Shown here piece after piece: positions 927 to 29,913 of a DNA stretch of 64,000 nucleotides (position 1 is its first letter; each line of letters starts with the position of its first letter). Source of the stretch: Treponema sp. (GTDB taxonomy: Bacteria; Spirochaetota; Spirochaetia; Treponematales; Treponemataceae). The stretch lies in contig JAFOCI010000041.1 in assembly GCA_017381365.1 (NCBI GenBank), positions 9,963 to 73,962 of the forward strand, in the 5' to 3' direction. A program made the position numbers and the translations under genes. The notes under the pieces are model-generated. The model was not told the DNA's origin. It ran no database searches and worked only from the letters and a program-made list of their open reading frames with translations.

Positions 927-1592
927 CTAGATATATTCTTCCAATTCTGCCGGCACAGGAGGCAACCCTTTGAATGCCTTTCTCCATGATTTTGAAGAAG
1001 GCTTTAATACAGCTAAAACAGTAAGCCAAATCAGTTTAAAATAAGTACATAGATTCCTATGATTTACAAAATAAACTTCTAAAGCTCCTTTATATGGGGC
1101 AATAATTGTATCGTGAAAAACATCACGATTTTCTACCGCATTAAGCATATCTTCTTCATCCCTGAATGCTACAGAACCAAGTCCACTAAGACCAGGTGCA
1201 ACTGTATCAACAGCTGCTTTTACTTCATCTGAATACAAATCGTAATGAGCCTTTGCCTGAGGGCGAGGTCCAATGACACTCATCTGGCCAATAAAGATAT
1301 TAAGCAATTGAGGAAGTTCATTAATTTTTGTTTTACGCAAAAACTTACCCATTGGCAAAATGCGAGGGTCATCTTTTTGAGTAAGAACGCCGCCTGCCAT
1401 ATTAGGACTATTTCTGAGCATTGTTGCAAACTTCATTACGCCAAAAGGTTTGCCGCCTTTTCCTATACGGGTCTGCTTGTAAAAAATATCATGCTCGCCA
1501 GTAAGTTTGAGACCTATCATAATTGGAATCATAAAAGGCAGCAGGATGATAATAGCAATACCCGAAAAAAGAATATCAAAAAAACGAATCAT
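927..1592 (-). CDS. Undecaprenyl-phosphate sugar phosphotransferase (small PglC/WbaP C-terminal type, initiating transferase)
   Basis: 221 aa with an N-terminal membrane helix and bacterial sugar transferase motifs (KFATM, DPRILPMGKFLRKTKINELPQL, IGPRPQ). Confidence 0.85.
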   Translation of the reverse strand: MIRFFDILFSGIAIIILLPFMIPIMIGLKLTGEHDIFYKQTRIGKGGKPFGVMKFATMLRNSPNMAGGVLTQKDDPRILPMGKFLRKTKINELPQLLNIFIGQMSVIGPRPQAKAHYDLYSDEVKAAVDTVAPGLSGLGSVAFRDEEDMLNAVENRDVFHDTIIAPYKGALEVYFVNHRNLCTYFKLIWLTVLAVLKPSSKSWRKAFKGLPPVPAELEEYI

Positions 1593-2732
1593 TTATTTAC
1601 TCTGTGCTTTAAGAGCTTTAATAAGAGCATCACAAACTAAATCAACCTGTTCCAAAGTCATAGTCGGAAACAATGGCAAAGTTAATTCATGCTCGCTTGC
1701 ATACTGTGCTTTTGGAGTTTCGTTCACAATTCCCTTATAACCTGTAAAGTTCTGGATTACAGGATAGTGAATACTTGTCTGAATCTCGTCGGCCTTCATG
1801 CTTTCTATTACAGCAATACGTTCAATTCCATCTTCGAGCATAATCGGCATAATGTGGAAATTTGGTTTACCGCGTGTAAAATGGCGAAAAGGAATTTTAA
1901 CTCCATTTACACCATCAAGGCGCTCATAATAATGATTTACAAGCTTTGTTCTAGCCTCGTTTGCCCCATCAAGTTTTTTAAGTTGTACAAGACCAAGAGC
2001 AGAACGCATTTCATCAATACGGTAGTTCAAACCAGCCATTGCAACATCATAAGTAATTGCACGTCCCTTAAAGCGGTCAAAACTAGGAACTGTCATACCA
2101 TGAGAACGGAGGCCTCTAAGTTTTTCAAGAAGTTCATCAGACTTAGTAACAACCATTCCGCCTTCGCCAACAGAAAGATTTTTGTTTGTAAAAAAGCTAA
2201 AGCAGGAAATATCACCAAAAGTTCCAAGAGCCTGACCTTTGTAATCTGCACCCGGAGTGTGGGCACAGTCTTCTATAAGGTATAAATTATGTTTTCTACA
2301 AATCTGGCAGATTGCATCCATATCACAGGCAAAGCCAGCATAGTGAACAATGAGCACTGCCTTTGTTTTTGGAGTAATTCGTTTTTCAATATCTGCAGGA
2401 TCCATACTCCAATCATCATTAGAAGTTATATCTGCAAGAACATTTTTTGCACCAGCCATTGTTACAACATTCTGGTCTGCAATAAAGGTCAAAGATGGAG
2501 TTATTACTTCATCTCCAGGTCCTATTCCGAGTGCCAAAACAGCCATATGCAAAGCTGCTGTACCATTAGAAACAGCAAGACCTTTTACCCCCTGTCCAAG
2601 ATAAGAAGTAAATGCAGCTTCAAAATCCAGAGTTTTCTGTCCCATTGTTATCCAGGCAGAATCAAGAACTTCCTTTACAGCTTCCTGTTCCTGACCGTCG
2701 AAATTTAATTTAAAAAGTTGAACTTTCCACAT
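1593..2732 (-). CDS. DegT/DnrJ/EryC1/StrS-family sugar aminotransferase
   Basis: 379 aa. PLP-lysine context SFFTNKNLSVGEGGMVVT. Abuts the downstream gene with no gap. Confidence 0.85.
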   Translation of the reverse strand: MWKVQLFKLNFDGQEQEAVKEVLDSAWITMGQKTLDFEAAFTSYLGQGVKGLAVSNGTAALHMAVLALGIGPGDEVITPSLTFIADQNVVTMAGAKNVLADITSNDDWSMDPADIEKRITPKTKAVLIVHYAGFACDMDAICQICRKHNLYLIEDCAHTPGADYKGQALGTFGDISCFSFFTNKNLSVGEGGMVVTKSDELLEKLRGLRSHGMTVPSFDRFKGRAITYDVAMAGLNYRIDEMRSALGLVQLKKLDGANEARTKLVNHYYERLDGVNGVKIPFRHFTRGKPNFHIMPIMLEDGIERIAVIESMKADEIQTSIHYPVIQNFTGYKGIVNETPKAQYASEHELTLPLFPTMTLEQVDLVCDALIKALKAQSK

Positions 2733-2764
2733 GATGTGGCCTCCAAATCCATTTTTAAGTTTAT

Positions 2765-3988
2765 TTAGTTATGTTCTATAGCTTCCAAAAATCTTTTTGC
2801 CAAAACTTCATAGGTATGATTTTGCATAACATAATCATGCCCCTTTTTACCCATTTCATCTCGTTCTGCTTGTGGCAAAGCAAGCATTTTCTTTAAGGCC
2901 GCAGCAATTTCTTCTGGTCTTGTATCACAGGTAATACCACAACCAGAATCACGCGGAATATCATTTCCGGCCCTAACTGATTGCAGAACAGGTTTACCTG
3001 CATACATATAATCAAAAATCTTGTTAGGAGAAATACCATATTTGTATAAATCAGAATCGCTCCAAATAATAATAATAATAATAATAGAAGATAGTTGTAA
3101 AAATGACTGAACCTGAGGTTTTGGAATTGCGTCATAAATTCTGATGTTATCTAAACCATATTTCTTAATTAGAGCATTAAGATTATCTTTTTCCGGTCCT
3201 TTTCCAACAATTGCAAAGAACAAATCAGGGTTACTATCTTTCACCATTCTTGCAACTTCAACCAGATTGTGAAGTGCATTTGCACGACCAAGGGTTCCAC
3301 AATAACCAATTATTTTTTTATCTTTTGGTAATTGATTTACAAATTCTTCTGATAACGGTTCTGCATTTTGAACTTCTGGCAAATATACACCATTTGGAAC
3401 ATGATAGAATTTGCCATCAGCAAGCCCATGTTCTTTCATATGTTCTTCTGCACAAGGCAAAATTGACACTACCTTATCTACATGCTTATAAGCAAAGTTT
3501 TCTGCAGCCTGCATAACTACAATAAAAGGATGCCATTTAGAATATCCACCCAGTTTCTGAGGACTTAGCGGCCATAAGTCGTGCACCTCATAAATAAACT
3601 GAGCCCCTGTTTTTTTAGAAAGTTTATAAGCCGGATAATTATCAAGAGGATAAGTAGAAGAAGCAATAACAACATCTGGTTTAAGAGCTGCAAGGCTTTT
3701 CATATTTTTGTAAAGCCCACGAATATAGTCCAACATGTTAAGCATGCGGCCTACTCCATTACCAGAATAAGACCTGCTCTTTAACCAAATATAGCGGATT
3801 CCTTCAACATTCTCTTCCCAGATATTCCCCTTTGGTTCAGGGTTTATACGACGAATATGGGAATTATTGGCAGCCACAATAGTTACCTGGTGTCCAAGTC
3901 TTATCCATTCCTGAGCAAGATAGTAGGGTCTGAATTCCATACCATAACTTGGAGAGCCTGCATAATGGTTAAGAATTAATATATGCAT
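2765..3988 (-). CDS. GT4 glycosyltransferase (WbuB-like)
   Basis: 407 aa, starts MHILILNHYAGSP, has YGISPNKIFDYMYAGKP. Contains an Ile7 run encoded by (ATT)7. Confidence 0.8.
   Translation of the reverse strand: MHILILNHYAGSPSYGMEFRPYYLAQEWIRLGHQVTIVAANNSHIRRINPEPKGNIWEENVEGIRYIWLKSRSYSGNGVGRMLNMLDYIRGLYKNMKSLAALKPDVVIASSTYPLDNYPAYKLSKKTGAQFIYEVHDLWPLSPQKLGGYSKWHPFIVVMQAAENFAYKHVDKVVSILPCAEEHMKEHGLADGKFYHVPNGVYLPEVQNAEPLSEEFVNQLPKDKKIIGYCGTLGRANALHNLVEVARMVKDSNPDLFFAIVGKGPEKDNLNALIKKYGLDNIRIYDAIPKPQVQSFLQLSSIIIIIIIWSDSDLYKYGISPNKIFDYMYAGKPVLQSVRAGNDIPRDSGCGITCDTRPEEIAAALKKMLALPQAERDEMGKKGHDYVMQNHTYEVLAKRFLEAIEHN
3065..3085. repeat. (AAT)7 trinucleotide microsatellite inside the GT4 gene
   Basis: Seven perfect AAT units on the plus strand, read as ATT x7 = IIIIIII in frame. 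Confidence 0.9.
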
Positions 3989-4004
3989 CTGTTATTATTC
4001 CTCT

Positions 4005-4676
4005 TTATAATGATTTCATCCAATCAATCCATTCTGAAAAATGTTTACAACTTTGGCACAAATTATTTATCCCAATTTTTTCCAAAACAGAAACCCCATC
4101 CGTCGCTTTATCATAATTTGGAATACAATTAATTATTCGTTTAGAAGGAGCTGTTTTTACACCATCATTTATCAATGCTTGATTTCTTTTTTTACAAAGA
4201 CAATCTCTTAATGGTTGTATATCATATTCGAAATATTGTTCTGCCAGAAGATTCAAATCAGAAAACAGCAATGCTTCAAATTCATGTAATTGTATATATG
4301 GATGGTAGACTGGTTTACTTAATTTTTCAGAATCAATCATTGCATTTTCAATACACGAAATCTTTTGATAAGGATCTAAAACTTTATCTGCTTCATTCTT
4401 TCCCGGAGTATCTTTTGGCAAGGCATATAAATCAAACATTGTAGTTACAAAAACATTCTCATCTTTTGTATAGGTCAAGTCTTTTTCAATTGTGTTTTTT
4501 GCTTTTGCATAATTTAAAAGACCACCCTTGTACATTTTCCCTTTGTTTTCATCTGCCTTTGTAAGTACTGTAGTAGGTATAAGAATTTTATTTAATGTTA
4601 AAAAAAATGGCGAAAGCACCCTGTTAACAAAATTTGTTTCAGATTGTCCCTCGGTTACAACATATATTCGTTTCAT
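4005..4676 (-). CDS. DUF4276-like protein (RloB/Toprim-like N-terminal EG..E motif)
   Basis: Start moved to MKRIYVVTEGQSETNFV, whose ATG (4676) forms an ATGA overlap with the ATPase stop. Has the TTMFDLYALPKDTPG motif recalled for DUF4276. Confidence 0.65.
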   Translation of the reverse strand: MKRIYVVTEGQSETNFVNRVLSPFFLTLNKILIPTTVLTKADENKGKMYKGGLLNYAKAKNTIEKDLTYTKDENVFVTTMFDLYALPKDTPGKNEADKVLDPYQKISCIENAMIDSEKLSKPVYHPYIQLHEFEALLFSDLNLLAEQYFEYDIQPLRDCLCKKRNQALINDGVKTAPSKRIINCIPNYDKATDGVSVLEKIGINNLCQSCKHFSEWIDWMKSL

Positions 4677-12000: not shown

Positions 12001-13068
12001 CTAACTCTCCGTTAAATCTCTTATTACTTGTTGAATTCTATGAATCCATAGATTTCGATATAGTAAAGATTCTTTTATATTATTTTGATAAGTTTTATAC
12101 AAAGAAGAATCCTCTGATAACTTTTTAATAGCAATAGCAAATTTTTTAATATCCGGTTCAACAGCAATACCAATTTTTTCATTATTTACAACATTAGTAA
12201 TTGCTTTATTATTTATCACAACCTGTGGTAATCCGTAACTCAAATATTCAAAAATTTTGACAGAAATTGCAAATTGGCTATATTCATATTTAGGGTTTCC
12301 AACATTAAAAGCAATTGAAGCTCTCCTGTATAAATCTACAAGTCCTGCACCACTGATATGATGCACTTCCAACCAACTAGCATTTTTACAAGAATGATTA
12401 AACTCATTCCATTCATTTTCTCGACAGACAAGAATCAATTTATACTCAGGATCACATGCGTTTAATTCATTGAATACATCAAGCAAAAATTTACCATCAT
12501 AATGCCCTGAAATTCCACCAACATAAATACCAGTCTGATTATTATCTCTTATGTGTAAATCTAGTTTGTTTTCACCTGCAGGTGGTAAAGCCCGTATATC
12601 ATGATATTTAAGCAAAGTTTTACATTCATCAGACGGAACATATATAATATTACAATATTTTAAAACTTTATTAGTTAATGATTGTAAGAACAATAAAACT
12701 TTATCTTTTATCTTTCCAGAAATTGAAGTTCTACGTGGAAATTCTTTTGGAAATTGCCAATAAAAATCTCTATAAAAATACCCTGTCGGAATACCAGCTT
12801 TACAAATATCTTTTATGAGTTTTCTGTCTGCATGGCGCATTATTGGATATGTCGGAGATTCTATATAACATAAATCAGGTCGTTTTCTTTTTATTTGTTT
12901 TCTTATTTTCTTTATATTAGATAACCGTTCTTTTGATACCTGTTCTCCTTGTAATACAATTACTTCATGACCTTCCTGTTTGAATGCATTTAACATTTTT
13001 GCAGGTCGGACTCCTGAACCAGAGAATATTTCGTCACTATTCACATAAGTTATATATAAAACTATCAT
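12001..13068 (-). CDS. Glycosyltransferase (GT-B fold, GT4-like)
   Basis: 355 aa. C-terminal FEYLSYGLPQVV motif, within the operon. Confidence 0.6.
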   Translation of the reverse strand: MIVLYITYVNSDEIFSGSGVRPAKMLNAFKQEGHEVIVLQGEQVSKERLSNIKKIRKQIKRKRPDLCYIESPTYPIMRHADRKLIKDICKAGIPTGYFYRDFYWQFPKEFPRRTSISGKIKDKVLLFLQSLTNKVLKYCNIIYVPSDECKTLLKYHDIRALPPAGENKLDLHIRDNNQTGIYVGGISGHYDGKFLLDVFNELNACDPEYKLILVCRENEWNEFNHSCKNASWLEVHHISGAGLVDLYRRASIAFNVGNPKYEYSQFAISVKIFEYLSYGLPQVVINNKAITNVVNNEKIGIAVEPDIKKFAIAIKKLSEDSSLYKTYQNNIKESLLYRNLWIHRIQQVIRDLTES

Positions 13069-13079
13069 AATTGTTTTTA

Positions 13080-14321
13080 TTAAACCAGTTCCCTTTGGAT
13101 TTTATTTATTTCATTTCTCTGGCGAGTATACCTAAAAAGAAAACCAACAAATAAACCAAAGGCGGGTGAAATTAAATATGAACTTGAAACAGATAACTGC
13201 CCTAGGAAAAACGAAAAAGAAATAATGAAGAAAGCTTTATTAGCCCAATCCATATCTTTTTTTAATATTTTTATTACTCGACATGTATTATAAAAAAAAT
13301 ATATTATAAAAGGAATAGCGAAAATACCAAATTGTAATAATATTTCTAGAATAAAATTATGTGCGTAAGAACCGTAAGGGAAACCTTTATTATGGTTTTG
13401 ATTTAGTAATAATCGATCAGAATAAAACCCAGAAAATCTTATCGGATTATCTAAAAAATAATTCCATGCTTTTGCATATATTTCATCACGCCCAGAAGAA
13501 TGAGAAACAAACTCTCCAGAAATAATTAAATTTACTGTTCTTGAATTATTAAAATGTGATTGTAGATAATTAGTAATTAATGGTGAAAAACAAAGAACAA
13601 TAAACAGTATTAAAGTAAAACTAAATATCCATTTTATAAATCTTGTTTTATTACTATAAAAAAACATACATAACAAAAAACAAATTAAATGGCACAGAAT
13701 ACTACCTCTACTTCCACAAATAAGATTAATTATTTCAAGAAATAAAAAAATAACCAAATAGAAATGTTTTGACTCATATATAGCAAAAATCAAACAAATC
13801 AACATTGGAATAAGTAAAGTATAAGAGAAAGTCATATCATATTGTTTTGTAACACTATATTTCAATAATTCAGACAATGCATAAAACACAGCTATAAAAC
13901 AATAAGGACGTAAATATTCTATAAATACATTAATATCTTTAATTCCATACAATAATAAAACGATGAGAATAAAATTTAATGAAAGAACTTGGAATAAATC
14001 TTTAATTGTTTCATTATCAATATTATTAACAGACACCGAATATTGAAAAAGCATATAACAAATAATTATTGTAATACATAGTTTTGCAGATTTTAAATAT
14101 TTTTTATAATTCTTGATAAAATACAATAAGAAACAAATAAAAACAATAAAATAGAGTCTGCCACTGATTATCTCTTTTATTGTTTCATCAATATTAAAAA
14201 AGATGAAGCAATTTGTGAGAATCCCTTTTATTACATTCCAATTCAGATATAAACATACAAAAGGAATGTATGATTTATCCAAAAAAATATCTAAATAAGT
14301 TTCTGTTTTGTTCATATTCAT
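13080..14321 (-). CDS. wzy: O-antigen polymerase/ligase-family membrane protein (Wzy-like)
   Basis: 413 aa, polytopic and highly hydrophobic. AHNFILEILLQFG resembles a Wzy_C motif. Confidence 0.65.
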   Translation of the reverse strand: MNMNKTETYLDIFLDKSYIPFVCLYLNWNVIKGILTNCFIFFNIDETIKEIISGRLYFIVFICFLLYFIKNYKKYLKSAKLCITIIICYMLFQYSVSVNNIDNETIKDLFQVLSLNFILIVLLLYGIKDINVFIEYLRPYCFIAVFYALSELLKYSVTKQYDMTFSYTLLIPMLICLIFAIYESKHFYLVIFLFLEIINLICGSRGSILCHLICFLLCMFFYSNKTRFIKWIFSFTLILFIVLCFSPLITNYLQSHFNNSRTVNLIISGEFVSHSSGRDEIYAKAWNYFLDNPIRFSGFYSDRLLLNQNHNKGFPYGSYAHNFILEILLQFGIFAIPFIIYFFYNTCRVIKILKKDMDWANKAFFIISFSFFLGQLSVSSSYLISPAFGLFVGFLFRYTRQRNEINKIQRELV

Positions 14322-20239: not shown

Positions 20240-21862
20240 TTATGCTCTTGGACTAACAGCAAATGTTTCTATAAATGATTTCAACATATCCTCTGTAAAC
20301 CTCTCTTTGGAATAAAAATAAAAATAATTATCAGGTTTTTCAGATTGAGTTTTTGGCTTTAATTCCGCATACGTTGTATTTTGACTTTTGCCCATTTTAT
20401 TAAATACTATATGAATGTTGTCAGCATTGATTTTTGGAGAAAAAGATGTATCAGATGATAGAATAACAAAAGAACACTCTATTTCTTGTTTATTTGAAAA
20501 CTCTATAATTTTTGTAGCAACACCTTTTACTTTTTCAGGATTGTTTTCGTCATCTATGATTTCCTGTAGAACTTTTTTATCTAACCTAAATAGATTTTTT
20601 GTGTTAACAATATCTATTAATGGTTTGAATTCAAGAAAAATACTTTCACCTTTTCCTTTATTATCACCTATATTGAGTAAATTTCTATATTCATAATAAG
20701 ACTTCCAAACAGGTTTATATCTAGAAGATCTGTCAAAAAACTCTGCAAAAATATTTATATTTTCAAAATCCGCTTCTTCAGAGAAACGATTTATAAAATA
20801 ACTATCGTTCAGAAGACATATATTTTTATCTTCAAAATGCAAACCTTTTTTAGTAAAAATATCACTATTAAAAAATGTTTTTAACCTTTCGTCTTTATCA
20901 CAATCAGTAACGGTATCTTCTTTTGTTGTTTTTAATAATTCACGAATACACGCTTGTAACAAAGCACTATCATATTTCACAACAGGATGACTTATAATCC
21001 AATTTCCTTGTTCTGACTTTGACCTAAAAACATTTTCTATAACACTTAATGCAGATTTTCTGAAAGCCGGATACAAACCATTAGATGTCTGAGCCGCTGT
21101 AACTGACATAGCAATTCTATCTATATCAACAGAGACATTATTATAACCTGACATCATAGTATCACGTCTTTGATAGTCAAGTTTATCAACATCAGCTGTA
21201 TCAGAATTCAATAAACGAATAAAACAATTTTTTATTCCATATTCACTTTTTTCTGTATCAGATAATCCGTTATAAGAATAAGTAACCCCTGTTATCATTC
21301 TTGCAGCAAGCTCAAAATCAATTTGTTTTTGCACTTCTTGTAATAGGATTTTTTTATACCTTATTGCAAACAAAGCACTTATTTTTTCATGCGAAGCTGG
21401 AGTACATTCTGAAAAATCTGATTCAAATATCGTAGAGCTATTATAATCTTTCACAGCATTAATTAAATCTGAATCAATTTTTATTGTTCCATCTTGTTCT
21501 ACACTTAGTTTAAAAAAATCTTCTGTTGTATGAGAAAATGGAGCATGTCCTATATCGTGCATTAAAGCTGCATAACGAAAAGTTATTTTACATTGTTCCA
21601 ATATAGTCTTATAATTATCGATATCAAAATTATTTAAATCCTCTTTTATATTCTGTTCAAAGGATTCAGCAAATCTTTTTGCAAGACAATATACTCCTAA
21701 AGAATGAATAAACCTATCATGTCTTGCCCCTGGATAAAGAACTCTGAAACTATCTTGTTCAATAAATCTTAAACGTTGAAATTCTGGACTATCAATAACA
21801 GGCAGAAATGCATCTTCAATTTCAATATAACCATGTACAGAATCTTTTATTATTTTAGACAT
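20240..21862 (-). CDS. SAMHD1/EF1143-like HD-domain phosphohydrolase (putative dNTP triphosphohydrolase) with an uncharacterised C-terminal half
   Basis: 540 aa, with VHGYIEI...FQRLRFIEQ, HDRFIHSLGV, ALMHDIGHAPFSH and DKLDYQRRD. Confidence 0.7.
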   Translation of the reverse strand: MSKIIKDSVHGYIEIEDAFLPVIDSPEFQRLRFIEQDSFRVLYPGARHDRFIHSLGVYCLAKRFAESFEQNIKEDLNNFDIDNYKTILEQCKITFRYAALMHDIGHAPFSHTTEDFFKLSVEQDGTIKIDSDLINAVKDYNSSTIFESDFSECTPASHEKISALFAIRYKKILLQEVQKQIDFELAARMITGVTYSYNGLSDTEKSEYGIKNCFIRLLNSDTADVDKLDYQRRDTMMSGYNNVSVDIDRIAMSVTAAQTSNGLYPAFRKSALSVIENVFRSKSEQGNWIISHPVVKYDSALLQACIRELLKTTKEDTVTDCDKDERLKTFFNSDIFTKKGLHFEDKNICLLNDSYFINRFSEEADFENINIFAEFFDRSSRYKPVWKSYYEYRNLLNIGDNKGKGESIFLEFKPLIDIVNTKNLFRLDKKVLQEIIDDENNPEKVKGVATKIIEFSNKQEIECSFVILSSDTSFSPKINADNIHIVFNKMGKSQNTTYAELKPKTQSEKPDNYFYFYSKERFTEDMLKSFIETFAVSPRA

Positions 21863-22190
21863 TTTGCCGAATAGTTTCCTGCATTACTTTTAAGATATCA
21901 GTGGGTATACCTGCATTAAAATAGTCAAAATATTTCTCTTTATTTGAACAAATAAAATTAATATCATTATTCTTGATTGAAAAGAAAGCTGGATAACTAT
22001 CCACAACAGCATTTATATTATAAGAACAAATATTAACAATAGCATTACAATTCTTTCGTAAAGCATTGTCAACTTTTGACACAATCTTAGAAAAATCTGA
22101 CAATGGTATTTGTTTAGAGCAAATCTTTCGCTCACAGAAAGAAAACCCCATAACTCCCAAAAACTGATCAGCATAAACGCTTCTACACAT
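21855..22190 (-). CDS. Hypothetical 111-aa protein, translationally coupled to the HD gene
   Basis: 8-nt overlap with the HD gene start, AGGGGA upstream of its ATG, promoter directly upstream. No recognisable motif. Confidence 0.4.
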   Translation of the reverse strand: MCRSVYADQFLGVMGFSFCERKICSKQIPLSDFSKIVSKVDNALRKNCNAIVNICSYNINAVVDSYPAFFSIKNNDINFICSNKEKYFDYFNAGIPTDILKVMQETIRQNV

Positions 22191-22312: not shown

Positions 22313-23641
22313 TTACAATCTCCACCACTTCATTCCAGAAGCTTCAAGTTCATCACGACGGTAAAGGCTCTTTACATCAATCAAAACTTTTTCGGCATCT
22401 GGTAATTCAGAACGGAAAAGGCCTCTAAGCTGCATTGTACTCATAGAACGGAATTCATTGTGTCCTACAGCAACGATTACACAATCTGCTTTTGGAAGCT
22501 TATCAAAGTCTACAAGGTCTACCCCATATTCATGCTTTGCAACAGCAGCATCAGCCCAGGAGTCTGTAACGATTGGATTAATCTCATATTCTTTAAGACG
22601 ATCAATAATATCCACAACTTTACTATTGCGAGTATCTGGACAATTCTCTTTAAATGTAATTCCAAGAATAACTACTGTTGCTTTCTTAGGAGCCATGCCA
22701 GCTTCGATCATCTGTTTAATTGCGGCATCGGCAACAAAGGCACCCATGCTGTCGTTTACTTTACGACCATTTAATATAATCTGACTGTGGTAGCCAAGTT
22801 TTTCTGCAGCATTTGTGAGATAATATGGGTCTACACCAATACAGTGACCACCAACAAGACCAGGCTTGAAACCAAGCGCATTCCACTTTGTGTTCATACC
22901 GGCAATTACTTCATCGGTATCAATGCCCATCTTATCACAAATCATTGCAACTTCATTTACAAAGGCAATGTTTATATCTCGCTGACTGTTTTCTACAACT
23001 TTTACAGCTTCGGCAGTTTTGATTGTACTTACCGGGAAAGTTCCTGCCTTTATTACAATATCATAAACCTTTTTAACTTCTGCACAAGTTTCCTCATCCA
23101 TACCAGAAACAATTTTTTTAATGCTTGTAAGAGTGTGAACTCTGTCACCTGGATTAATGCGTTCCGGAGAATATGCAATTTTCCAGTCTACTCCACATTT
23201 CAATCCAGATTCTTTTTCGATGATAGGAACACAAATATCTTCTGTTACGCCCGGGTATACAGTTGATTCAAAACAAACGATTGTACCAGGCTTGATATTC
23301 TGACCAACAGTACGACTGGCTCCTTCTACAGGACGTAAGTCTGGAGTTGTATCATCATTTACTGGGGTTGGAACTGCAACTACAATAAAGCGGGCTTCGC
23401 TTAGTTTTTTAGGATCTGCTGTAAATTCTACGGTAGTGTTTTTAATGGCATCGCCTACTTCGTTTGTAGCATCAATACCATTTTTGTATTCGTTTACACG
23501 TTTTTCATTGATATCGAATCCGATAACAGAAATGTGTTTTGCAAATTCTACTGCAATTGGCATACCTACATAGCCAAGTCCAACAAGTGCAAGTTTTGAT
23601 TTACCTGCGATAAGTTCTGAATAAATATTATTGAATTCCAT
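22313..23641 (-). CDS. wbpA: UDP-N-acetyl-D-glucosamine 6-dehydrogenase family (WbpA/TviB-like nucleotide-sugar dehydrogenase)
   Basis: 442 aa, Rossmann GLGYVGMPIA, catalytic GGHCIGVDPYYL. Adjacent to WbpD/E-like genes. Confidence 0.8.
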   Translation of the reverse strand: MEFNNIYSELIAGKSKLALVGLGYVGMPIAVEFAKHISVIGFDINEKRVNEYKNGIDATNEVGDAIKNTTVEFTADPKKLSEARFIVVAVPTPVNDDTTPDLRPVEGASRTVGQNIKPGTIVCFESTVYPGVTEDICVPIIEKESGLKCGVDWKIAYSPERINPGDRVHTLTSIKKIVSGMDEETCAEVKKVYDIVIKAGTFPVSTIKTAEAVKVVENSQRDINIAFVNEVAMICDKMGIDTDEVIAGMNTKWNALGFKPGLVGGHCIGVDPYYLTNAAEKLGYHSQIILNGRKVNDSMGAFVADAAIKQMIEAGMAPKKATVVILGITFKENCPDTRNSKVVDIIDRLKEYEINPIVTDSWADAAVAKHEYGVDLVDFDKLPKADCVIVAVGHNEFRSMSTMQLRGLFRSELPDAEKVLIDVKSLYRRDELEASGMKWWRL

Positions 23642-23664: not shown

Positions 23665-24156
23665 CTATTTTAGAATATTCCCTTCTTTATCTACTTTACC
23701 ATGTACTCTAGCAGGATTTCCATAAACAAGAGAATAAGGCGGAACATCTTTTGTAACAACAGAACCAGCTCCTACTAGAGCATACTCTCCTATTGTTACT
23801 CCGCAAACTACAGTTGCATTTGCTCCAATACTACAACCTTTTTTTAGAACTGTCTTTTTATATTCAGTTTTACGTTCTACAAAAGCACGTGGATTAATCA
23901 CATTTGTAAAGACCATACTCGGTCCACAAAAAACATCATCTTCAATTTCTACTCTATCATATATAGAAACGTTATTCTGGATTTTTACACCATTTCCAAT
24001 AACAGCTTTTCCACCAACATTAACGTTTTGTCCAATAGAACAATTTGAGCCGATTTTAGCTCCGCTCATAATATGACAAAAATGCCAGATTTTGGTTCCC
24101 TCACCAATTTCAGCACCTTCATCAACGTAGCTTGATTCATGTTTAAAATATGCCAT
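23665..24156 (-). CDS. wbpD: LbH N-acetyltransferase, WbpD/WlbB-like
   Basis: 163 aa, hexapeptide repeats, FTNVINPRA motif, C-terminal [19 protein letters not shown]. Confidence 0.8.
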
Positions 24157-25301
24157 TATGCCAAAGCCTCTTTGATTTTTTGTACTACAAATGAAACATC
24201 CTTAGCTTCCATATACGGATGCAAAGGAAGACTCAATACAGTTTTAGCAAGTCTTTCTGTTACAGGACAATCTGCAATTGCAGAATCTGTACCAGTATAA
24301 GCTCCCTGCAAATGCATTGGCTTAATATAATAAACCATAGAAGGAATTCCAGCTTCTTTAAGTTTTGCCTGAAGCTCTGAACGATTAACATCTAAAGGAA
24401 GCTGAATTGTGTACTGAGCCCAGCTGCTTAGATAACCATTTTTAATTTCTGGAAGAACTATTTTTCCTGCAAGACCAGCCTGCTTAAATTCTTCGTTGTA
24501 CCAGGAAGCGGCTCTGTTTATATCTTTGATTTCGTAGTCTTTAAATGCCTTGAATTTAACCTTCAAGATTGCAGCCTGAATTGTATCAAGACGGCTATTT
24601 AAACCGAGTCTTATGTTATTATATTTATCTTCTCCAGACTTTCCGTGAACAGCATAACTTCTTATAAGAGCTGCCCATTCATCATTATCTGTAAAAATAG
24701 CTCCACCATCACCATAACAACCAAGAGGTTTTGCAGGAAAGAAACTTGTTGTAGAAATATCCCCAAAAGAACAGGCTCTTTTACCGTTGATTTCTCCACC
24801 AAAGCCCTGTGCTCCATCTTCGAGAAGAAATAATCCGTATTTTTCGCAAATAGGTTTTATTGCATTGTAATCTGCAGGAAGACCAAATAAATCTACAGAA
24901 ACAACAACTTTTGGATTATACTTACCCTCTTTCTTAACTTTAAGAATTGCTTCTTCAAGTTTTACAGGATTAATATTATAAGTTCGCTCATCTACATCAA
25001 CAAAAACACAGGTAGCTCCTTCTGCAGCCGGACACTCACCACTTGAGAAAAATGTAAAGTCTGGAACAAATACTGCATCACCTTTACCAATTCCCCAAGC
25101 TTTTAATGCAAGAGTTAATGCATCTGTACCATTTGCACAGGTAATACAGTGTTTTACTCCAACATATTCTGCAAGTTCTTTTTCAAGTTCTGCAACTTCC
25201 GGACCAGAGATGTAATGTGCGCTGGCACATACACTCTGAACCTTTTCATCAATCTGAGCTTTTAATACCTGATATTGTTTTTTTAAGTCTCTGAATTCCA
25301 T
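24156..25301 (-). CDS. wbpE: DegT-family aminotransferase, WbpE-like
   Basis: 381 aa, [19 protein letters not shown]. Has a 1-nt overlap with the wbpD-like gene. Confidence 0.8.
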
Positions 25302-25405
25302 ATTCTATTCCTTGATTTCTGCAAACTCGTCTGATGAGTTTGCTTTATATTTCTTCCACATAAACATTTTAATGTTTCACCAAGCACATTTTCACACTCA
25401 CATGC

Positions 25406-25471
25406 TCAGCCAATCCCTTTTGCCGGGATTCCAGCCATTAAAGCATGAGCAGGAACATTTTTGGTAACAAC
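25406..25471 (-). pseudogene. 3'-terminal relic of an LbH acetyltransferase gene
   Basis: The spacer reads VVTKNVPAHALMAGIPAKGIG-stop. This matches the C-terminus of the intact gene at 23665 ([21 protein letters not shown]). No corresponding N-terminal coding sequence is present. Confidence 0.6.
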
Positions 25472-25484
25472 TAAACAAAAATAT

Positions 25485-25949
25485 TCATATTTTTTCTTCC
25501 AATTTTTTTGATTTACAAATCAATTTATTTTTACAATTATTCAAGTTCTTTAATAAAATTTTATACGAAGTTGGATAATTATTTGGAGAAGGCATACTTG
25601 TAACAACAGCCCTACAATAATAATCATAATTATTAACTTTAAGCAATTTCTTCTTAAAAATATCTAATGTTGAATTTAACTGTATGCATGCTTTTGAAAC
25701 ATCGCACCCTTTTAATTCAACTAAAATGCATTTATCATCATCTAAGACAATTAATCCTTTATCACATTTGTTTATTTCTTCATCATCAATAATACCTTTA
25801 TCAATTTGTAATTCAAGACAAGATTTATTATTGTCATTTATTGCCCTATATTCTTTACCATTCTCTTTTAAAACGAATAAATTTTTATTAGATGGACCAT
25901 TTACAAAATTCTTAAATTCAAGAAGAGGCAAGTCATTATCTTTATTCAT
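25485..25949 (-). CDS. Small protein with a PD-(D/E)xK-like signature (candidate nuclease effector)
   Basis: 154 aa. CDKGLIVL then 14 residues to ILVELKG, followed by ACIQL. 8-nt overlap with the upstream ATPase. Confidence 0.45.
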   Translation of the reverse strand: MNKDNDLPLLEFKNFVNGPSNKNLFVLKENGKEYRAINDNNKSCLELQIDKGIIDDEEINKCDKGLIVLDDDKCILVELKGCDVSKACIQLNSTLDIFKKKLLKVNNYDYYCRAVVTSMPSPNNYPTSYKILLKNLNNCKNKLICKSKKLEEKI

Positions 25950-27183
25950 TATCTACCTCAACTAATTTATCATATAAAGAATTTATAACAGAAGAACAAT
26001 CATCTATTTCTGTAGTATCTATCAACTCATAATCTTTATTTATAATATTATGAACTATTCCATTTTGAATTCTATAGGCACTTGTATCATTTATATCTAC
26101 AAACAAATTTTTAGATATTTCTGATATTTCTTTACCTGTTCTTTTATTCACAGCACATGCATAAATATAGTTATTTAATGCACTCAGTATATAAGGACTA
26201 TGAGTTGTAATAAGCAGTTTATTTTCTTTAATAGAGTTATTGATTGAAATCAATTCTTCTAAGACATTAACCTGAGAAACTGGGAAAAGATTCTGTTCCG
26301 GTTCTTCAACAATATTAACAAAACAGGTATTCACATAATCAAATATTACTTCTTTTATCATATTGTAATCAGTTTCATTTACATGATTTATAGTACCGTA
26401 TGTAAAATCGTGTTCAAAAACATTAATCAAATGATCAGAAATAATAACATCGTCCCATTTTTTTTCTATAAGCTCTTTTATTTTTTCTATATCAAAACTA
26501 CTTAACTCTTGTATTATCTCAACAAGAGTCTTATTAACATCCTGTAGTAAGTAATTTGAAACTATAGAAATTGGAACAAGAGATTGTAACCCACTGGATG
26601 ATTCTTGAATACGCACAGAACTCTCTTCATTTTTTATTGTTGTAATTTGAGTTTCTTTATTAAACTGTAACTTGAAATCTCCTACAGGTAACTTAAAAAT
26701 ACCTGTTTCTGAAGCAGAAAGAGCATTCTTGTATTCGGTTTGCAACAATCTTAACATCAAAGGAAGTTTTTTTACATTCTCAGCTTTGTCAACAACAGTT
26801 AATAGATTTCTTTCTGACGGAATATACATAATCTTAGGTTTATTATATCTTCCACTAATAGGACTGGAGGTAAATTTATCTTTTGAATAATGGAATTCAT
26901 AAGCTCCCCCAATATAATCTATTCTCGTTGAGTCAATAAAATAATCACTGAGTTTTTGGTTTGCACAATATTGAATAAATTCTTTTCTTCCAAAATTACT
27001 TGCATTCTGTGGTGTTCTAAAAAAATCCTTTTCCAACCATGAAAGAGTAGAAAATAATTTTGCTATTGTACTTTTACCAGAACCTTGTTCTCCAATAAAA
27101 ACAGATACCTTATTAATGATTAAATACTCATCTTTGTAGATTTCTTTTATTGGACCAAAGTTCTTTATTCTTAATTTAACCAT
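25942..27183 (-). CDS. ABC/OLD-type AAA ATPase (AAA_15/21-like)
   Basis: 413 aa, N-terminal MVKLRIKNFGPIKE, Walker A GEQGSGKST, signature-like SSGLQS, Walker B NIVEEPEQNLFP, then ITTHSPY. Confidence 0.75.
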   Translation of the reverse strand: MVKLRIKNFGPIKEIYKDEYLIINKVSVFIGEQGSGKSTIAKLFSTLSWLEKDFFRTPQNASNFGRKEFIQYCANQKLSDYFIDSTRIDYIGGAYEFHYSKDKFTSSPISGRYNKPKIMYIPSERNLLTVVDKAENVKKLPLMLRLLQTEYKNALSASETGIFKLPVGDFKLQFNKETQITTIKNEESSVRIQESSSGLQSLVPISIVSNYLLQDVNKTLVEIIQELSSFDIEKIKELIEKKWDDVIISDHLINVFEHDFTYGTINHVNETDYNMIKEVIFDYVNTCFVNIVEEPEQNLFPVSQVNVLEELISINNSIKENKLLITTHSPYILSALNNYIYACAVNKRTGKEISEISKNLFVDINDTSAYRIQNGIVHNIINKDYELIDTTEIDDCSSVINSLYDKLVEVDNE

Positions 27184-27186
27184 TAC

Positions 27187-28263
27187 TTAAAAAGTTCCTT
27201 TCATATCTGTGCTTGCAAAATCTGTAAGCGGAAGTTTTACTGGAACTCCAGTTTTCATACTCTTATAAATAGAAAGAATCATTTCCAATGCGTTTCGTCC
27301 AGCAACTGCATCTACATAAGGTTTTCGGTTATTTTTTATTGCATCAATCATATCTGCATAAAGACTCGTGTGGCCGTTACCGTAAACATTACTTGTTGCT
27401 TCTTCAAGACCTTTATTTGCCTGGTCAGCTTCTGTTTCATCTGCAAAATCCCATACATCAATATTGTTTGTAGATTTTCCGCCAAGTTTTACAGTTCCAT
27501 TTTCACCAAACAGGAAAAGTGTTTCTTCAAGATTTTTAGGATAAACGTTTGTTGTACCTTCAATTGTTGCTACAGCTCCGTTTTTAAAAGTTACAACTGC
27601 CATACCAACATCTTCTGCTTCAAGATAATGATGCTGCTGCTGACGTGTAACTCCGTAAACAGTATCGACCTCATTACCCATCATCCATCTTAAAAGGTCA
27701 ATTCCATGAATACACTGATTCATAAGACATCCGCCATCTTCTGCCCAAGTACCACGCCATGGTGCCTGAGTGTAGTAATCTTTATTACGATTCCAGCGAA
27801 CATGAATTGAACCGTGAGAAAGTTTTCCAAAACGCCCATCATCAAGAGCCTTACGCATTTTCTGAACAGCAATATTAAAACGGTTCTGGTGACAGGCACT
27901 AACTTTTACACCTTTTTCTGTGCTTCGCTTAATAATTTCTTCTGCATCAGCCATGTTCATTGCCATTGGTTTCTCAATAATAACGTTAATTCCATGGTCA
28001 ATACAGTAAAGTGCAATCTCTGCATGAAGTCCACTTGATGTTGCAATTGCAACCAGTTCAAGTTCCGGATGTTCGGTAATCATCTGTTTATAATCAGCGT
28101 AGCGAGCAATAGATTTATCATCCTGCAAATTATGCTTAGCTAAAAGAGTCTGGATATTATCAAGTTCAATATCACAGGCAGCAACAAATTCAAGACCATT
28201 GTTCAAAACAGCCTTAACATGATTGGTCGCAATTCGACCACATCCAATTAGTGCGTATTTCAT
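27187..28263 (-). CDS. wbpB: Gfo/Idh/MocA oxidoreductase, WbpB-like
   Basis: 358 aa, MKYALIGCGRIA, IIEKPMA. First biosynthetic gene after the leader. Confidence 0.8.
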   Translation of the reverse strand: MKYALIGCGRIATNHVKAVLNNGLEFVAACDIELDNIQTLLAKHNLQDDKSIARYADYKQMITEHPELELVAIATSSGLHAEIALYCIDHGINVIIEKPMAMNMADAEEIIKRSTEKGVKVSACHQNRFNIAVQKMRKALDDGRFGKLSHGSIHVRWNRNKDYYTQAPWRGTWAEDGGCLMNQCIHGIDLLRWMMGNEVDTVYGVTRQQQHHYLEAEDVGMAVVTFKNGAVATIEGTTNVYPKNLEETLFLFGENGTVKLGGKSTNNIDVWDFADETEADQANKGLEEATSNVYGNGHTSLYADMIDAIKNNRKPYVDAVAGRNALEMILSIYKSMKTGVPVKLPLTDFASTDMKGTF

Positions 28264-28435
28264 TATTATATCCTATATTAGTTATTATTTTTATGTAGGG
28301 AAAAATTTTAAAGACACCTTCTCCATTGGCAACCAGTCGTTATTTCCGCCGTCACCCACAATAGATTTATTCACCACTTGACTTACGTGCTTCAACCAAA
28401 CTCCGTGTCATTCAATGGCTGCCTTTAATTTTACT

Positions 28436-28465
28436 ATAATACAATTTATTATTTATGGGTGTCAA
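28436..28465 (-). promoter_or_regulatory. Candidate sigma70 promoter TTGACA-18-TATTAT for the glycan operon
   Basis: -35 at 28460-28465, -10 at 28436-28441. It is followed by an untranslated leader of about 170 nt before the wbpB-like ATG (28263). Confidence 0.45.
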
Positions 28466-28493
28466 TAAATTCAATTCGTGAACAATCGGAATT

Positions 28494-29006
28494 TTACTTT
28501 TTCTGAATTTCCTGATACGACAGGCTTAAAATCCGTTTTCCGTCCATAAGCGTAACTGCAAAATTTATGCGCTTATTAGACCTGTTCACATCCGAAATAA
28601 AGCCTTCCATTCCTTTGAACAATCCGTCTACAATTACAATCCTGTCGTTTACATCAAACTGAACATTTACAACAGGAATAACGCTTCCATATTTTAAAAA
28701 TGAAGTTACAAGGTCGGTATCTTTTGCAGAAAGCGGTTTCATTCCATTATCATGGGGAAGAAAATCAATAAAACCTTCTTCATCTTTTATATCCTGAATT
28801 CTTGAAATATTATCCGTTTCCCAGAAAACATAACCTGGAAACAACGGATCAATATACTCCTTGCCGCTTTTTAACCTCATCTGCTTTCCAACACAATGTA
28901 GTTTGCCATTCTCCTCCTCTGGAAAAGAATCAAAGACAGCTTGTACTTTTTCTATAAATTGTTTTTCAAAACCGGTTCTAACCCAAATGCAGTAAAAATT
29001 GCTCAT
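28494..29006 (-). CDS. Specialised NusG paralog (RfaH/UpxY/LoaP-class operon antiterminator)
   Basis: 170 aa. NGN motif LFPGYVFW, C-terminal KOW-like IVIVDGLFKGMEGFISDV. Sits at the head of the glycan operon. Confidence 0.75.
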   Translation of the reverse strand: MSNFYCIWVRTGFEKQFIEKVQAVFDSFPEEENGKLHCVGKQMRLKSGKEYIDPLFPGYVFWETDNISRIQDIKDEEGFIDFLPHDNGMKPLSAKDTDLVTSFLKYGSVIPVVNVQFDVNDRIVIVDGLFKGMEGFISDVNRSNKRINFAVTLMDGKRILSLSYQEIQKK

Positions 29007-29178: not shown

Positions 29179-29913
29179 TTACTTCTGAATCCAGACATAA
29201 GCCGTTGCCGAACTAGCACCAACCTTTTCAATAAGTCCTTCTTTAACTAAATCGGCTAAAGTTCTTTCTACCGTCTTTTTACTGATATCAGGACATTTTT
29301 CCAGAATTTCTTTTTTGTTTATCTTGCCTACAGTATTTTGTATCAAGCGTTTTACTCTTTCAGGCTTTGAAATCTTATTGTCAGATAAGTATTCAACACG
29401 ACTTTCAAATTCATTTGACGCCTTAATCAGAATACCTAGATAATACTTAACGAAAGGTTCGTATAGATTATTGCTCTCATGCCATTCTGCAGAACAATCC
29501 TGCAGGGCTTCATAACAAGTTTCTTTTGACTCTTCACTAAGCATCTCAATACTTATGTATTTTCCAACAATAAATCCAGCCCGATAAAGTAAAAGAAGAG
29601 TAAGAAGTCTGCTCATTCGTCCGTTTCCATCTTCAAATGGGTGAATACATAGAAAATCCAAAATGAACATAGGGATTAACAGTAATTTATCTGTTTTGCC
29701 GCTATTCCATTCCTCCAGAAAATGTTCTGTCATAAGTCTCATAGCTTCTTCCGTTTCAAAGGCTGATACTGGTGCAAATCTTACTTTCTGAATTCCATTT
29801 CCATCTGTTTCGGCAATAATGTTATCGCTGGATTTATATTTTCCACCAAAACCATTTTGATTGTATGAATATAAATATCCTCTGTAATAATCTCTACCCC
29901 AAAGAAATATTCT
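29179..29913 (-). pseudogene. Fic-family protein, 5'-truncated
   Basis: Fic motif HPFEDGNGRMSR and a C-terminal wHTH-like tail. The frame stays open for 57 codons upstream of the first ATG (29742) and still reads Fic-like (GGKYKSSDNII...VRFAPVSAFETEEAM) with no start codon. It ends at a stop inside an inverted repeat. Confidence 0.5.

Follow-up and report, generated by a model that had tools for sequence, protein, structure and literature searches.

A divergent PDC-M29 pair of ABC-type ATPase and putative nuclease genes as a probable passenger of a Treponema glycan operon

The closest described relatives of the genes considered here are found among the 145 "phage defence candidate" (PDC) systems, which were compiled from genes embedded in BREX, DISARM or Type I restriction-modification (R-M) loci and added to PADLOC (Payne et al. 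2024, bioRxiv 10.1101/2024.01.29.577857). One of these, PDC-M29, is filed in PADLOC-DB v2 as cassette CAS_00123 (FAM_00005>>FAM_02872); its first family recurs in the HEC-01 and PDC-M31 cassettes (bioRxiv 10.1101/2024.01.29.577857) and is presumably a common ABC-ATPase family. A full-text literature search for "PDC-M29" yielded no paper, the system being listed only in the supplement of the PADLOC "embedding" preprint, and literature searches for a newer name of a pair of ABC-ATPase and small PD-(D/E)xK protein gave nothing relevant. Here, a cassette of two genes is analysed that lies between a wbpB-like and a wbpE-like gene of a glycan operon in a Treponema sp. contig (JAFOCI010000041.1), at positions 25485-27183 of the window (the whole stretch of 64,000 nucleotides (nt) under study, to which all position numbers refer; Table 1). 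Gene 1 encodes an ABC-type ATPase, gene 2 a small putative nuclease, and by sequence comparison the pair is assigned to the PDC-M29 candidate defence family as a divergent member. As the most probable reading, with a probability of roughly 60%, the cassette would be a defence module in which the ATPase gates a PD-(D/E)xK nuclease, and which is expressed as a passenger of the glycan operon and passed between Treponema lineages when the conserved wbp flanks recombine.

In its two-gene layout (A gene first, adjacent, same strand), its protein families and the core CD...(V/I)ELK...Q of its small protein, the window pair corresponds to PDC-M29. It differs in the length of the B protein (144-160 amino acids (aa) in the window subfamily versus 162-171 aa in the canonical form), in the partial match of gene 2 and in its residence in glycan operons instead of R-M, BREX or DISARM loci. 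Among the experimentally tested systems, HEC-02 is the nearest in architecture, being likewise a stand-alone ABC ATPase with a separate small protein of the PD-(D/E)xK superfamily (with a NERD domain), which was shown to defend and to require both genes (bioRxiv 10.1101/2024.01.29.577857). However, gene 2 is without a NERD match and HEC-02A is not among the 25 best PADLOC matches of gene 1; HEC-02 and the window pair are different families in the same roles. The Septu system PtuA/PtuB (and the retron PtuAB effectors of Ec78, Ec83 and Eco7) resembles the window pair in that PtuA is the best relative of gene 1 with a solved structure and an ATPase oligomer gates a separate nuclease. PtuB, in contrast, is an HNH protein whereas gene 2 is PD-(D/E)xK-like, the similarity to PtuA is limited to the ATPase core (template-modelling (TM) score ~0.4, ~11% identity), and no retron is present at the window cassette. 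PARIS (AriA/AriB), Gabija (GajA/GajB) and OLD also couple an ABC ATPase of the same broad clade to a nuclease; theirs, however, is a TOPRIM domain (AriB/DUF4435, or fused in GajA and OLD), which neither window protein contains, and Gabija further requires the UvrD-like helicase GajB, whereas no helicase gene adjoins the window pair.

The ATPase and its small partner

Gene 1 matched the PADLOC model of PDC-M29A with an E-value of 4.7e-98 (327 bits), its residues 1-412 being aligned to positions 1-408 of the 410-position model, whereas the other PADLOC ATPase models (AriA, PtuA, HEC-01A, GajA, AbiLi) reached 1.7e-12 at best and mostly covered short core stretches (those of AriA, PtuA and GajA short stretches of the ATPase core only). 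In Pfam, AAA_15 and AAA_21 were both past their cut-offs, and neither Pfam nor the AlphaFold2 (AF2) model (predicted local distance difference test score, pLDDT, 92.4) revealed a fused nuclease or TOPRIM domain in the 413 residues. The motifs GEQGSGKST, SSGLQS, NIVEEPEQNLFP and TTHSPY, from which the original prediction had read an ATPase, are all present, and their key residues are invariant in 52 relatives: G31, Q33, G36, K37, S38 and T39 of Walker A; S196, S197, G198, Q200 and S201 of the signature-like SSGxQS (196-201); E293, E294, E296 and N298 of Walker B/D-loop; and T327, H328, S329 and P330 of the H-loop. The top Foldseek matches were the retron-Eco8 ATPase, PtuA (Septu, retrons Ec78/Ec83/Eco7), GajA and Rad50 (E ~1e-7, probability 1.0, TM ~0.4). 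A profile search against the PDB produced the same ranking (PtuA/retron 4e-8, OLD 3e-4, AriA 0.01); a profile is needed for this comparison, the single-sequence phmmer search against the PDB giving no match. Its product is to be placed, as a stand-alone ABC-type ATPase, with the PtuA/AriA/OLD/Rad50 group.

Gene 2 was recognized by the two PADLOC models of PDC-M29B (PDLC04563, E 6.6e-6; PDLC04564, E 0.0038), in both cases over part of the model; by PADLOC's own calling thresholds, these matches may be too weak. The canonical PDC-M29 pair of L089/L090 (PADLOC: A 9e-121, B 6e-46) stands beside a pair of N6-methyltransferase and specificity-subunit genes and another AAA_15 ATPase gene; its B protein (L089) was aligned by hhalign with the gene 2 family profile at 96.5% probability (E 7e-10), and the core CD...VELK...QL of that protein is also seen in the gene 2 family. 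When 1.84 billion representatives were searched with a profile, 1,452 relatives of gene 2 were obtained at E <=1e-3. Among 102 aligned sequences with identities down to 25% (mean column identity 23%), D63, E78, K80, G81 and Q90 were the sole invariant columns; apart from G81, these are the residues of the spacing on which the original prediction of a nuclease had rested (D63, 14 residues on E78-L-K80, then Q90).

The AF2 model of gene 2 (pLDDT 93.1; predicted TM score, pTM, 0.89) comprises strands at residues 44-48, 64-68 and 73-78, a helix at 84-102 and a strand at 109-115. In this model D63 immediately precedes strand 64-68, E78 ends strand 73-78 with K80 two residues later, and Q90 is located in helix 84-102; judged by the order of secondary structures, the predicted strand order and motif placement are those of the PD-(D/E)xK restriction-endonuclease fold. 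The weak matches obtained with Foldseek were mostly PD-(D/E)xK proteins as well (FAAP24/XPF/Mus81, Can2, MunI, NucC, EcoO109I, DdmD, HindIII). The comparison of gene 2 and its 14- and 102-sequence profiles with all PDB chains gave matches at chance level only (PriX and a hypothetical protein; E 0.2-0.7). A Pfam scan of gene 2 and 101 relatives at E up to 1, for which 25 of 80 families are listed, contained among the listed matches HSDR_N_2 (12), HSDR_N (9), NucS_C (3), DUF2726 (2), SduA_C (2) and DpnII (1), all below threshold; the recurrent families are all of the PD-(D/E)xK type. VRR_NUC, which the original prediction had offered as an option for gene 2, and NERD were absent among these listed matches, and for HNH no match of gene 2 was obtained in Pfam or PADLOC. 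Because fold order, invariant residues and the weak Foldseek and Pfam matches converge, although no single match is significant, a PD-(D/E)xK-type nuclease is the best reading of gene 2.

A gene 1 relative was found directly 5' and on the same strand of every gene 2 relative with readable upstream DNA (~27 loci), the paired genes usually overlapping or lying a few tens of bases apart. Against cassette-bearing relatives, the ratio of nonsynonymous to synonymous substitution rates (dN/dS) of gene 1 was 0.14-0.20 and that of gene 2 0.16-0.19, computed over dS up to 1-2.7; both genes are under purifying selection, and because of these low ratios both are taken to be functional. Several independent assemblies contain near-identical copies of the cassette, and the protein clusters formed at 90% identity have 177 and 299 members. 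The two-gene design of an ABC/OLD-type ATPase and a PD-(D/E)xK-like protein after the manner of Septu, Gabija or PARIS, as originally predicted, is thus supported by PADLOC, the folds and the invariant residues; the accompanying statement that the effector could not be assigned to a named system is superseded by PDC-M29.

The partner gene of Treponema putidum CP038802 (L087:8259-8717) was missed by both PDC-M29B models of PADLOC at E 1e-3, and PADLOC probably under-calls PDC-M29 in spirochaetes and other lineages, its B models under-detecting the whole subfamily. The partner of a clear PDC-M29A-type ATPase at L111:6920-7450 was likewise missed by both models at this threshold. While the molecular kind is already catalogued, the active-site assignment, the detection gap of the B models and the glycan-operon niche described below are additions of the present analysis. 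PDC-M29 would gain a concrete, testable mechanism by it, with an ATPase from the PtuA/OLD/Rad50 clade and a small protein whose five invariant residues map to a predicted active site of the PD-(D/E)xK type.

Exchange of the cassette and decay of the acetyltransferase gene

For comparison, 80 loci with close WbpB relatives were fetched and the window proteins were mapped onto them. The usual arrangement was wbpB-LbH-wbpE(-wbpA), LbH denoting an acetyltransferase gene of the left-handed beta-helix type. The cassette is an accessory insertion, since empty sites, which the original prediction had proposed to look for, exist in related Treponema genomes: in L004, L008 and L013 the wbpB stop codon is immediately followed by the LbH start codon, and L006 has the order wbpB-wbpE-wbpD-wbpA with neither cassette nor LbH. 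The pair is therefore not conserved at all related loci, a possibility considered in the original prediction. The nearest cassette-bearing relative, L003 (Treponema MAG176), contains wbpB, gene 1 (99% identity), gene 2 (94%), an intact LbH gene of 189 aa and wbpE, and the window is colinear with it from wbpB to the first five LbH codons. Between the two loci, gene 1 has a dS of 0.04 and gene 2 one of 0.14, compared with 0.80 for wbpB; along the sequence, identity was 67-95% over most of wbpB, 96-100% from ~27290 through the cassette and ~77% in the LbH remnants, with the result that the last ~100 nt of wbpB (27187-27290) fall within the near-identical block. On the grounds of this identity mosaic and of the dS contrast between wbpB and the cassette, the latter is concluded from the alignments to have been recently exchanged by homologous recombination, the crossover lying within the 3'-terminal part of wbpB.

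The junctions of the cassette are seamless (wbpB TAA-GTA-ATG of gene 1; TGA of gene 2 overlapping the LbH start codon), no terminal or border repeats were found and no transposase or integrase gene was detected in it by Pfam, so that a transposon or integrative mobile element was rejected. A foreign origin by composition was also ruled out: the cassette genes are indeed more AT-rich than the wbp genes in raw terms (GC 0.27 and 0.24 versus 0.35-0.39), as had been judged by eye in the original prediction, but their GC content at third codon positions (GC3, 0.17) does not differ from that of the neighbours (0.14-0.26), and the remainder of the operon shows the same AT-richness. In the phage and plasmid collections, the family was represented by one distant match in 72,556 plasmid records and one in 50,697 phage records, the latter a lone ATPase, by which a phage or plasmid origin of the cassette was ruled out. 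The phage match (L114, Microcystis phage Mic1 MN013189, 16586-17824) covers 84% of gene 1 at 36% identity, is not accompanied by a small partner and is flanked by genes for an RNA ligase and a DNA adenine methylase.

The ORF (open reading frame) list confirmed the overlap of 8 nt between the two cassette genes (25942-25949) and the distance of 3 nt between the wbpB-like stop and the start of gene 1. No minus-strand terminator was found by a scan between gene 2 and wbpE, and the only strong promoter-like site in the consensus scan is situated ~170 nt 5' of wbpB (28465-28436). In consequence of this tight gene coupling, the lack of a terminator and the position of the promoter-like site, the cassette very likely rides on the glycan operon transcript predicted to start upstream of wbpB, in line with the co-transcription proposed beforehand.

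The spacer of 183 nt between gene 2 and the wbpE-like gene (25302-25484) is in its entirety an LbH pseudogene, consisting of the first 5 codons, a ~383-nt internal deletion and the last 55 codons, the latter with a TGG-to-TGA nonsense mutation at 25408-25406 and a 1-nt frameshift near 25350. The ATG of the 17-nt stub overlaps the TGA of gene 2 (ATGA), the stub has 4 mismatches to L003, and a short GTT microhomology is found at the deletion junction. The part of this relic that had been noticed in the original prediction, the spacer 25406-25471, reads VVTKNVPAHALMAGIPAKGIG-stop on the minus strand (25471-25406); the 21-aa peptide matches the LbH C-terminus of related loci at 71-95% identity, and blastn alignments starting exactly at 25471 extend colinearly over ~725 to 1,310 nt through the intact LbH 3' end into wbpE in L003, L004, L001 and L008. 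A chance match is ruled out by the latter, and the relic proved to be larger than was assumed. Within it, just 5' of the wbpE start, a 10-bp hairpin (GCAAACTCGTC...GATGAGTTTGC; 25321-25343) is located that is kept in L092 and L094; no T-run follows it on the minus strand, hence there is no terminator, and the hairpin may affect wbpE translation or mRNA stability.

Identical LbH scars with the stub occur in the independent assemblies L092 and L094, in which the TGG codon is kept and an extra A is present, while L095 (gene 2 73% identical) probably retains the 5' stub only (MNDFVV-stop), with wbpE ~20 nt later. An intact LbH gene is found where no wbpD follows wbpE (L003, L004, L008, L013), and LbH is lost where wbpD does so (the window, L092, L094, L095, L006); exactly one intact acetyltransferase copy was kept across the examined loci. 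According to this comparison, the decay of LbH is explained by redundancy with wbpD in a mosaic locus and not by the cassette: the two events appear to be independent because L003 and L001 (the latter with extra sugar genes between the cassette and LbH) combine the cassette with an intact LbH gene, and L006 lost LbH without the cassette. The nearest relative of the window wbpE in blastn of the loci is L006, and the WbpD-like protein is 96% identical to its L006 counterpart. A rule of "one acetyltransferase per pathway" is neatly illustrated by this natural locus, in which a gene became a pseudogene following mosaic recombination. In L006 itself (L006:9050-9100), wbpB is without its usual stop and reads through (...GAFGGVQE-stop) to a stop resembling the old LbH stop context, which suggests that LbH was precisely and completely deleted there, in an event independent of that in the window lineage.

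The original prediction had assumed that the cassette replaced most of an acetyltransferase gene ("DISPLACEMENT"). In its most explicit form, a homologous crossover in wbpB would have been combined with an illegitimate join, guided by microhomology, within the resident LbH gene, deleting most of the latter at once, and such a course could account for the end of the L003-like block beside the deletion, for the drop to ~77% identity beyond the junction and for the GTT microhomology. The mismatches of the stub to L003, however, assign it to the diverged resident LbH gene and not to the incoming block, and the loci with cassette and intact LbH, the loss of LbH in L006, which never had the cassette, and the association of LbH loss with a downstream wbpD in every locus examined all point away from a single step. 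Such a single step is disfavoured and considered unlikely; the displacement explanation has failed, and separate events of cassette exchange and LbH decay are preferred.

Glycan operons as the home of the subfamily and the role of the pair

The relatives were scanned for their loci with a 14-sequence gene 2 alignment, and the subfamily was defined by an ATPase aligning full-length with gene 1 together with a partner of 144-160 aa. At 11 of 13 distinct sites (a raw count with no background distribution beside it), in Treponema and other anaerobes, polysaccharide genes are the immediate neighbours on the same strand and tightly packed, and the flanking sugar genes differ between the sites. The pair follows wbpB in the window, L001, L003, L092, L094 and L095; it lies between Glyphos_transf and GT8/NeuB genes (L083), between a thiamine pyrophosphate enzyme gene and acyltransferase/pyruvyl transferase genes (L085), between epimerase and DegT genes in L086 and L087 (Treponema putidum), between a MarR-like regulator and flippase/Wzy genes (L088, L104), between FdtA/hexapeptide and DegT/flippase genes (L091), between a mannosyltransferase gene and GT1/DegT genes (L103), between Wza/Wzc/CpsB and Wzi genes (L117), 5' of a GT1 (L097) or a flippase gene (L100) and 3' of a GT8 gene (L102). 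The two remaining sites are a pair following a MarR-like regulator among DUF3990 genes (L002) and two pairs in tandem (L105). Other clades of the family reside in an R-M island (L089, L090), among housekeeping genes (L115 of T. denticola; L116, L109, L111-113) and beside SusC/D genes (L106). The junction downstream of wbpB was rejected as a general defence hot spot, as its inserts in other taxa are ordinary sugar genes; as a boundary between modules it is normal, the Treponema cassette being the unusual cargo.

Several minor features of these loci were noted. The pair is tandemly duplicated at L099:4-1045 and L105:1-1742: directly behind a gene 2 relative comes another ATPase gene, to which L105 adds a further gene 2-like fragment. 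Defence-like co-residents of cassette-bearing glycan loci are a SAMHD1-like HD protein (window), AbiEii (L086) and a UvrD-family helicase with an AAA_15/DUF3226 pair (L091). The AbiEii gene of L086 (3048-4000) follows a 99-aa ORF; in L091, an AAA_15/AAA_21 protein gene with a DUF3226 partner and the UvrD-family helicase gene were located at 1438-4448 and 12088-14265. DUF3990 genes occur in L002 (5607-9365) and L091, the latter also containing DUF3791. Literature searches for defence genes inside glycan operons gave nothing relevant, which is absence of evidence only.

The mechanism proposed for the pair is drawn by analogy with Septu, PARIS and HEC-02. An oligomer of the ATPase would hold or gate the nuclease and would sense a cue of infection, for instance a phage protein, ends of foreign DNA or altered nucleotide levels; the nuclease would then be released or activated and would cut phage or host nucleic acid, with the result that phage production stops. 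The pair would be read from the LoaP-headed glycan operon and be translationally coupled (3 nt between the wbpB stop and gene 1, the 8-nt overlap, the gene 2 stop on the old LbH start). It would have entered the lineage through homologous recombination in the conserved wbp flanks, and the LbH pseudogene would result from a separate event, an internal deletion with subsequent further decay, tolerated thanks to the wbpD gene after wbpE.

A number of observations weigh against this reading as a defence module. All 145 PDC systems were described by their authors as untested, and PDC-M29 was nominated solely from its embedding in R-M, BREX or DISARM loci (bioRxiv 10.1101/2024.01.29.577857). Foldseek gave no match of gene 2 at E <0.01 in PDB and BFVD, the best being 0.28 in the PDB and 0.037 in the viral BFVD at TM scores <=0.37, and nothing above threshold was obtained for gene 2 in Pfam, NCBIfam or PHROGs. 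The near-absence of the family from phages and plasmids has to be added, as well as the near-constant residence of the subfamily in glycan operons and not in classical defence islands, which leaves room for a glycan-linked or locus-stabilising role.

A locus-stabilising role would be fulfilled by an addiction module of toxin-antitoxin-like design, in which the nuclease is the toxin and the ATPase its restraint; loss of the pair, or of the stretch of operon around it, would kill the cell, and the pair would persist mainly by stabilising the variable glycan locus and spreading with it, less by stopping phages. In favour of such a module are the lack of a promoter in the cassette, which makes it wholly dependent on the operon, its recurrence in glycan loci subject to recombination, the presence of AbiEii toxin-antitoxin genes in a locus of this kind (L086) and the Pfam name of AAA_21, which refers to an AbiEii-type toxin context. 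Yet close relatives often have empty sites or have cleanly lost or gained the pair, so that loss is evidently survivable, and the related ATPase-nuclease pairs that were tested are defence systems. Addiction as the role of the pair is therefore considered unlikely, although it and defence by abortive infection are not mutually exclusive.

A glycan-linked function without immunity is very unlikely. Here, the pair would introduce breaks that promote recombination and serotype switching in a homing-like manner, or would regulate glycan expression. The predominance of glycan genes around the subfamily would be accounted for, as would the recent crossover beside the cassette and the position of the latter at a boundary of modules, where sugar genes are exchanged in other taxa. 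However, the flanking genes differ at almost every site and do not offer a conserved target sequence, other clades of the family are found in R-M islands and among housekeeping genes, and all structural relatives of gene 1 with a known role act in defence or DNA repair. To our knowledge, there is no precedent for an ATPase-nuclease pair acting on a glycan locus. That the pair consists of decaying or non-functional passenger genes, as its position next to a pseudogene in a mosaic locus might indicate, is effectively refuted by the dN/dS values, and both frames are intact with all catalytic motifs conserved and with near-identical copies in several assemblies.

More broadly, the glycan-operon subfamily of PDC-M29 might be functionally tied to the surface-glycan locus, either through co-inheritance of immunity with the receptor glycan or as a promoter or police of recombination at module boundaries, a tentative and doubtful suggestion. 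In the first version, immunity and phage-receptor glycan would form one unit under LoaP-type antitermination, and a serotype switch would carry the matching intracellular defence along; in the stronger version, the ATPase-nuclease pair itself would promote or police recombination at the boundaries of glycan modules. Under either version, glycan operons would be a previously unrecognised home of immune genes in spirochaetes and other gut anaerobes. The use of glycans as phage receptors already makes glycan loci evolve rapidly; if the present arrangement were general, these loci would act as sinks of defence genes in poorly studied organisms, and recombination would carry receptor variation and intracellular immunity along together.

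The operon around the cassette

The surrounding region is a single long minus-strand operon of the Wzx/Wzy type, which further contains genes for a flippase, Wzy, glycosyltransferases and acyl- and aminotransferases (see Table 1 for the features next to the cassette). The WbpB/WbpE/WbpD/WbpA pathway, known in Pseudomonas aeruginosa, leads to UDP-2,3-diacetamido-2,3-dideoxy-glucuronic acid. The flanks of the cassette encode the same enzyme families (GFO/IDH/MocA, DegT, LbH acetyltransferase and UDP-GlcNAc 6-dehydrogenase), but the gene order shifts among relatives, the acetyltransferase gene being located either before or after wbpE. WbpB-like proteins with 77-95% identity are distributed over metagenome-assembled genomes of Treponema, many Clostridia, Bacteroides, Gastranaerophilales and Veillonellaceae from rumen and gut (L003-L082), which points to an extensive horizontal transfer of the sugar pathway among gut anaerobes. 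By its best matches, the window belongs to a Treponema of the ruminant gut.

Table 1. Features of the window in and around the cassette.
Feature	Position	Strand	Basis
Gene 1, 413 aa, ABC-type ATPase (PDC-M29A family)	25942-27183	minus	ORF list, PADLOC, Pfam
Gene 2, 154 aa, putative PD-(D/E)xK-type nuclease effector (divergent PDC-M29B)	25485-25949	minus	ORF list, PADLOC, AF2
5' LbH stub, reads MNIFV to the deletion junction	25472-25488	minus	Alignment with the start of the L003 LbH gene
3' LbH relic, last 55 codons	25305-25471	minus	Translation compared with the intact 189-aa L003 LbH protein; colinear blastn
WbpB-like GFO/IDH/MocA oxidoreductase, upstream recombination flank	27187-28263	minus	Pfam
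WbpE-like DegT aminotransferase, next intact gene downstream of the cassette	24156-25301	minus	Pfam DegT_DnrJ_EryC1, E 4e-100
WbpD-like hexapeptide acetyltransferase, 163 aa, intact	23665-24156	minus	Pfam Hexapep
WbpA/TviB-like UDP-GlcNAc 6-dehydrogenase	22313-23641	minus	NCBIfam TviB, E 7e-130
LoaP/NusG-like antiterminator gene, operon head	28494-29006	minus	Pfam NusG; NCBIfam LoaP, E 1e-21, under the curated cut-off
Best promoter-like site, TTGACA-18-TATTAT	28436-28465	minus	Consensus scan only, 11/12 matches

The leader of ~170 nt between the LoaP-like gene and wbpB (28264-28493) could contain a LoaP-responsive element; in an Rfam scan of the window, this leader included, no family was matched. 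Directly 5' of the LoaP-like gene, the Fic motif HPFEDGNGRMSR is encoded by a minus-strand ORF of 187 aa (29179-29742), which may lack its N-terminal part; in L089, a complete Fic/HTH gene is located two genes 5' of the canonical PDC-M29 pair. The operon harbours a second non-sugar insert on the minus strand between wbpA and the Wzx flippase gene (20240-22190), in which an ORF of 111 aa without known family precedes the gene of a 540-aa HD-domain protein; neither gene is present in any of the 80 related wbp loci. The HD protein is akin to SAMHD1 and to the dNTP triphosphohydrolase EF1143 of E. faecalis (PDB 2o6i, E 2.7e-21; SAMHD1, 3e-16; PADLOC dGTPase, 2.8e-8; PHROG 35128, 4.7e-24) and may represent a nucleotide-depletion defence gene.

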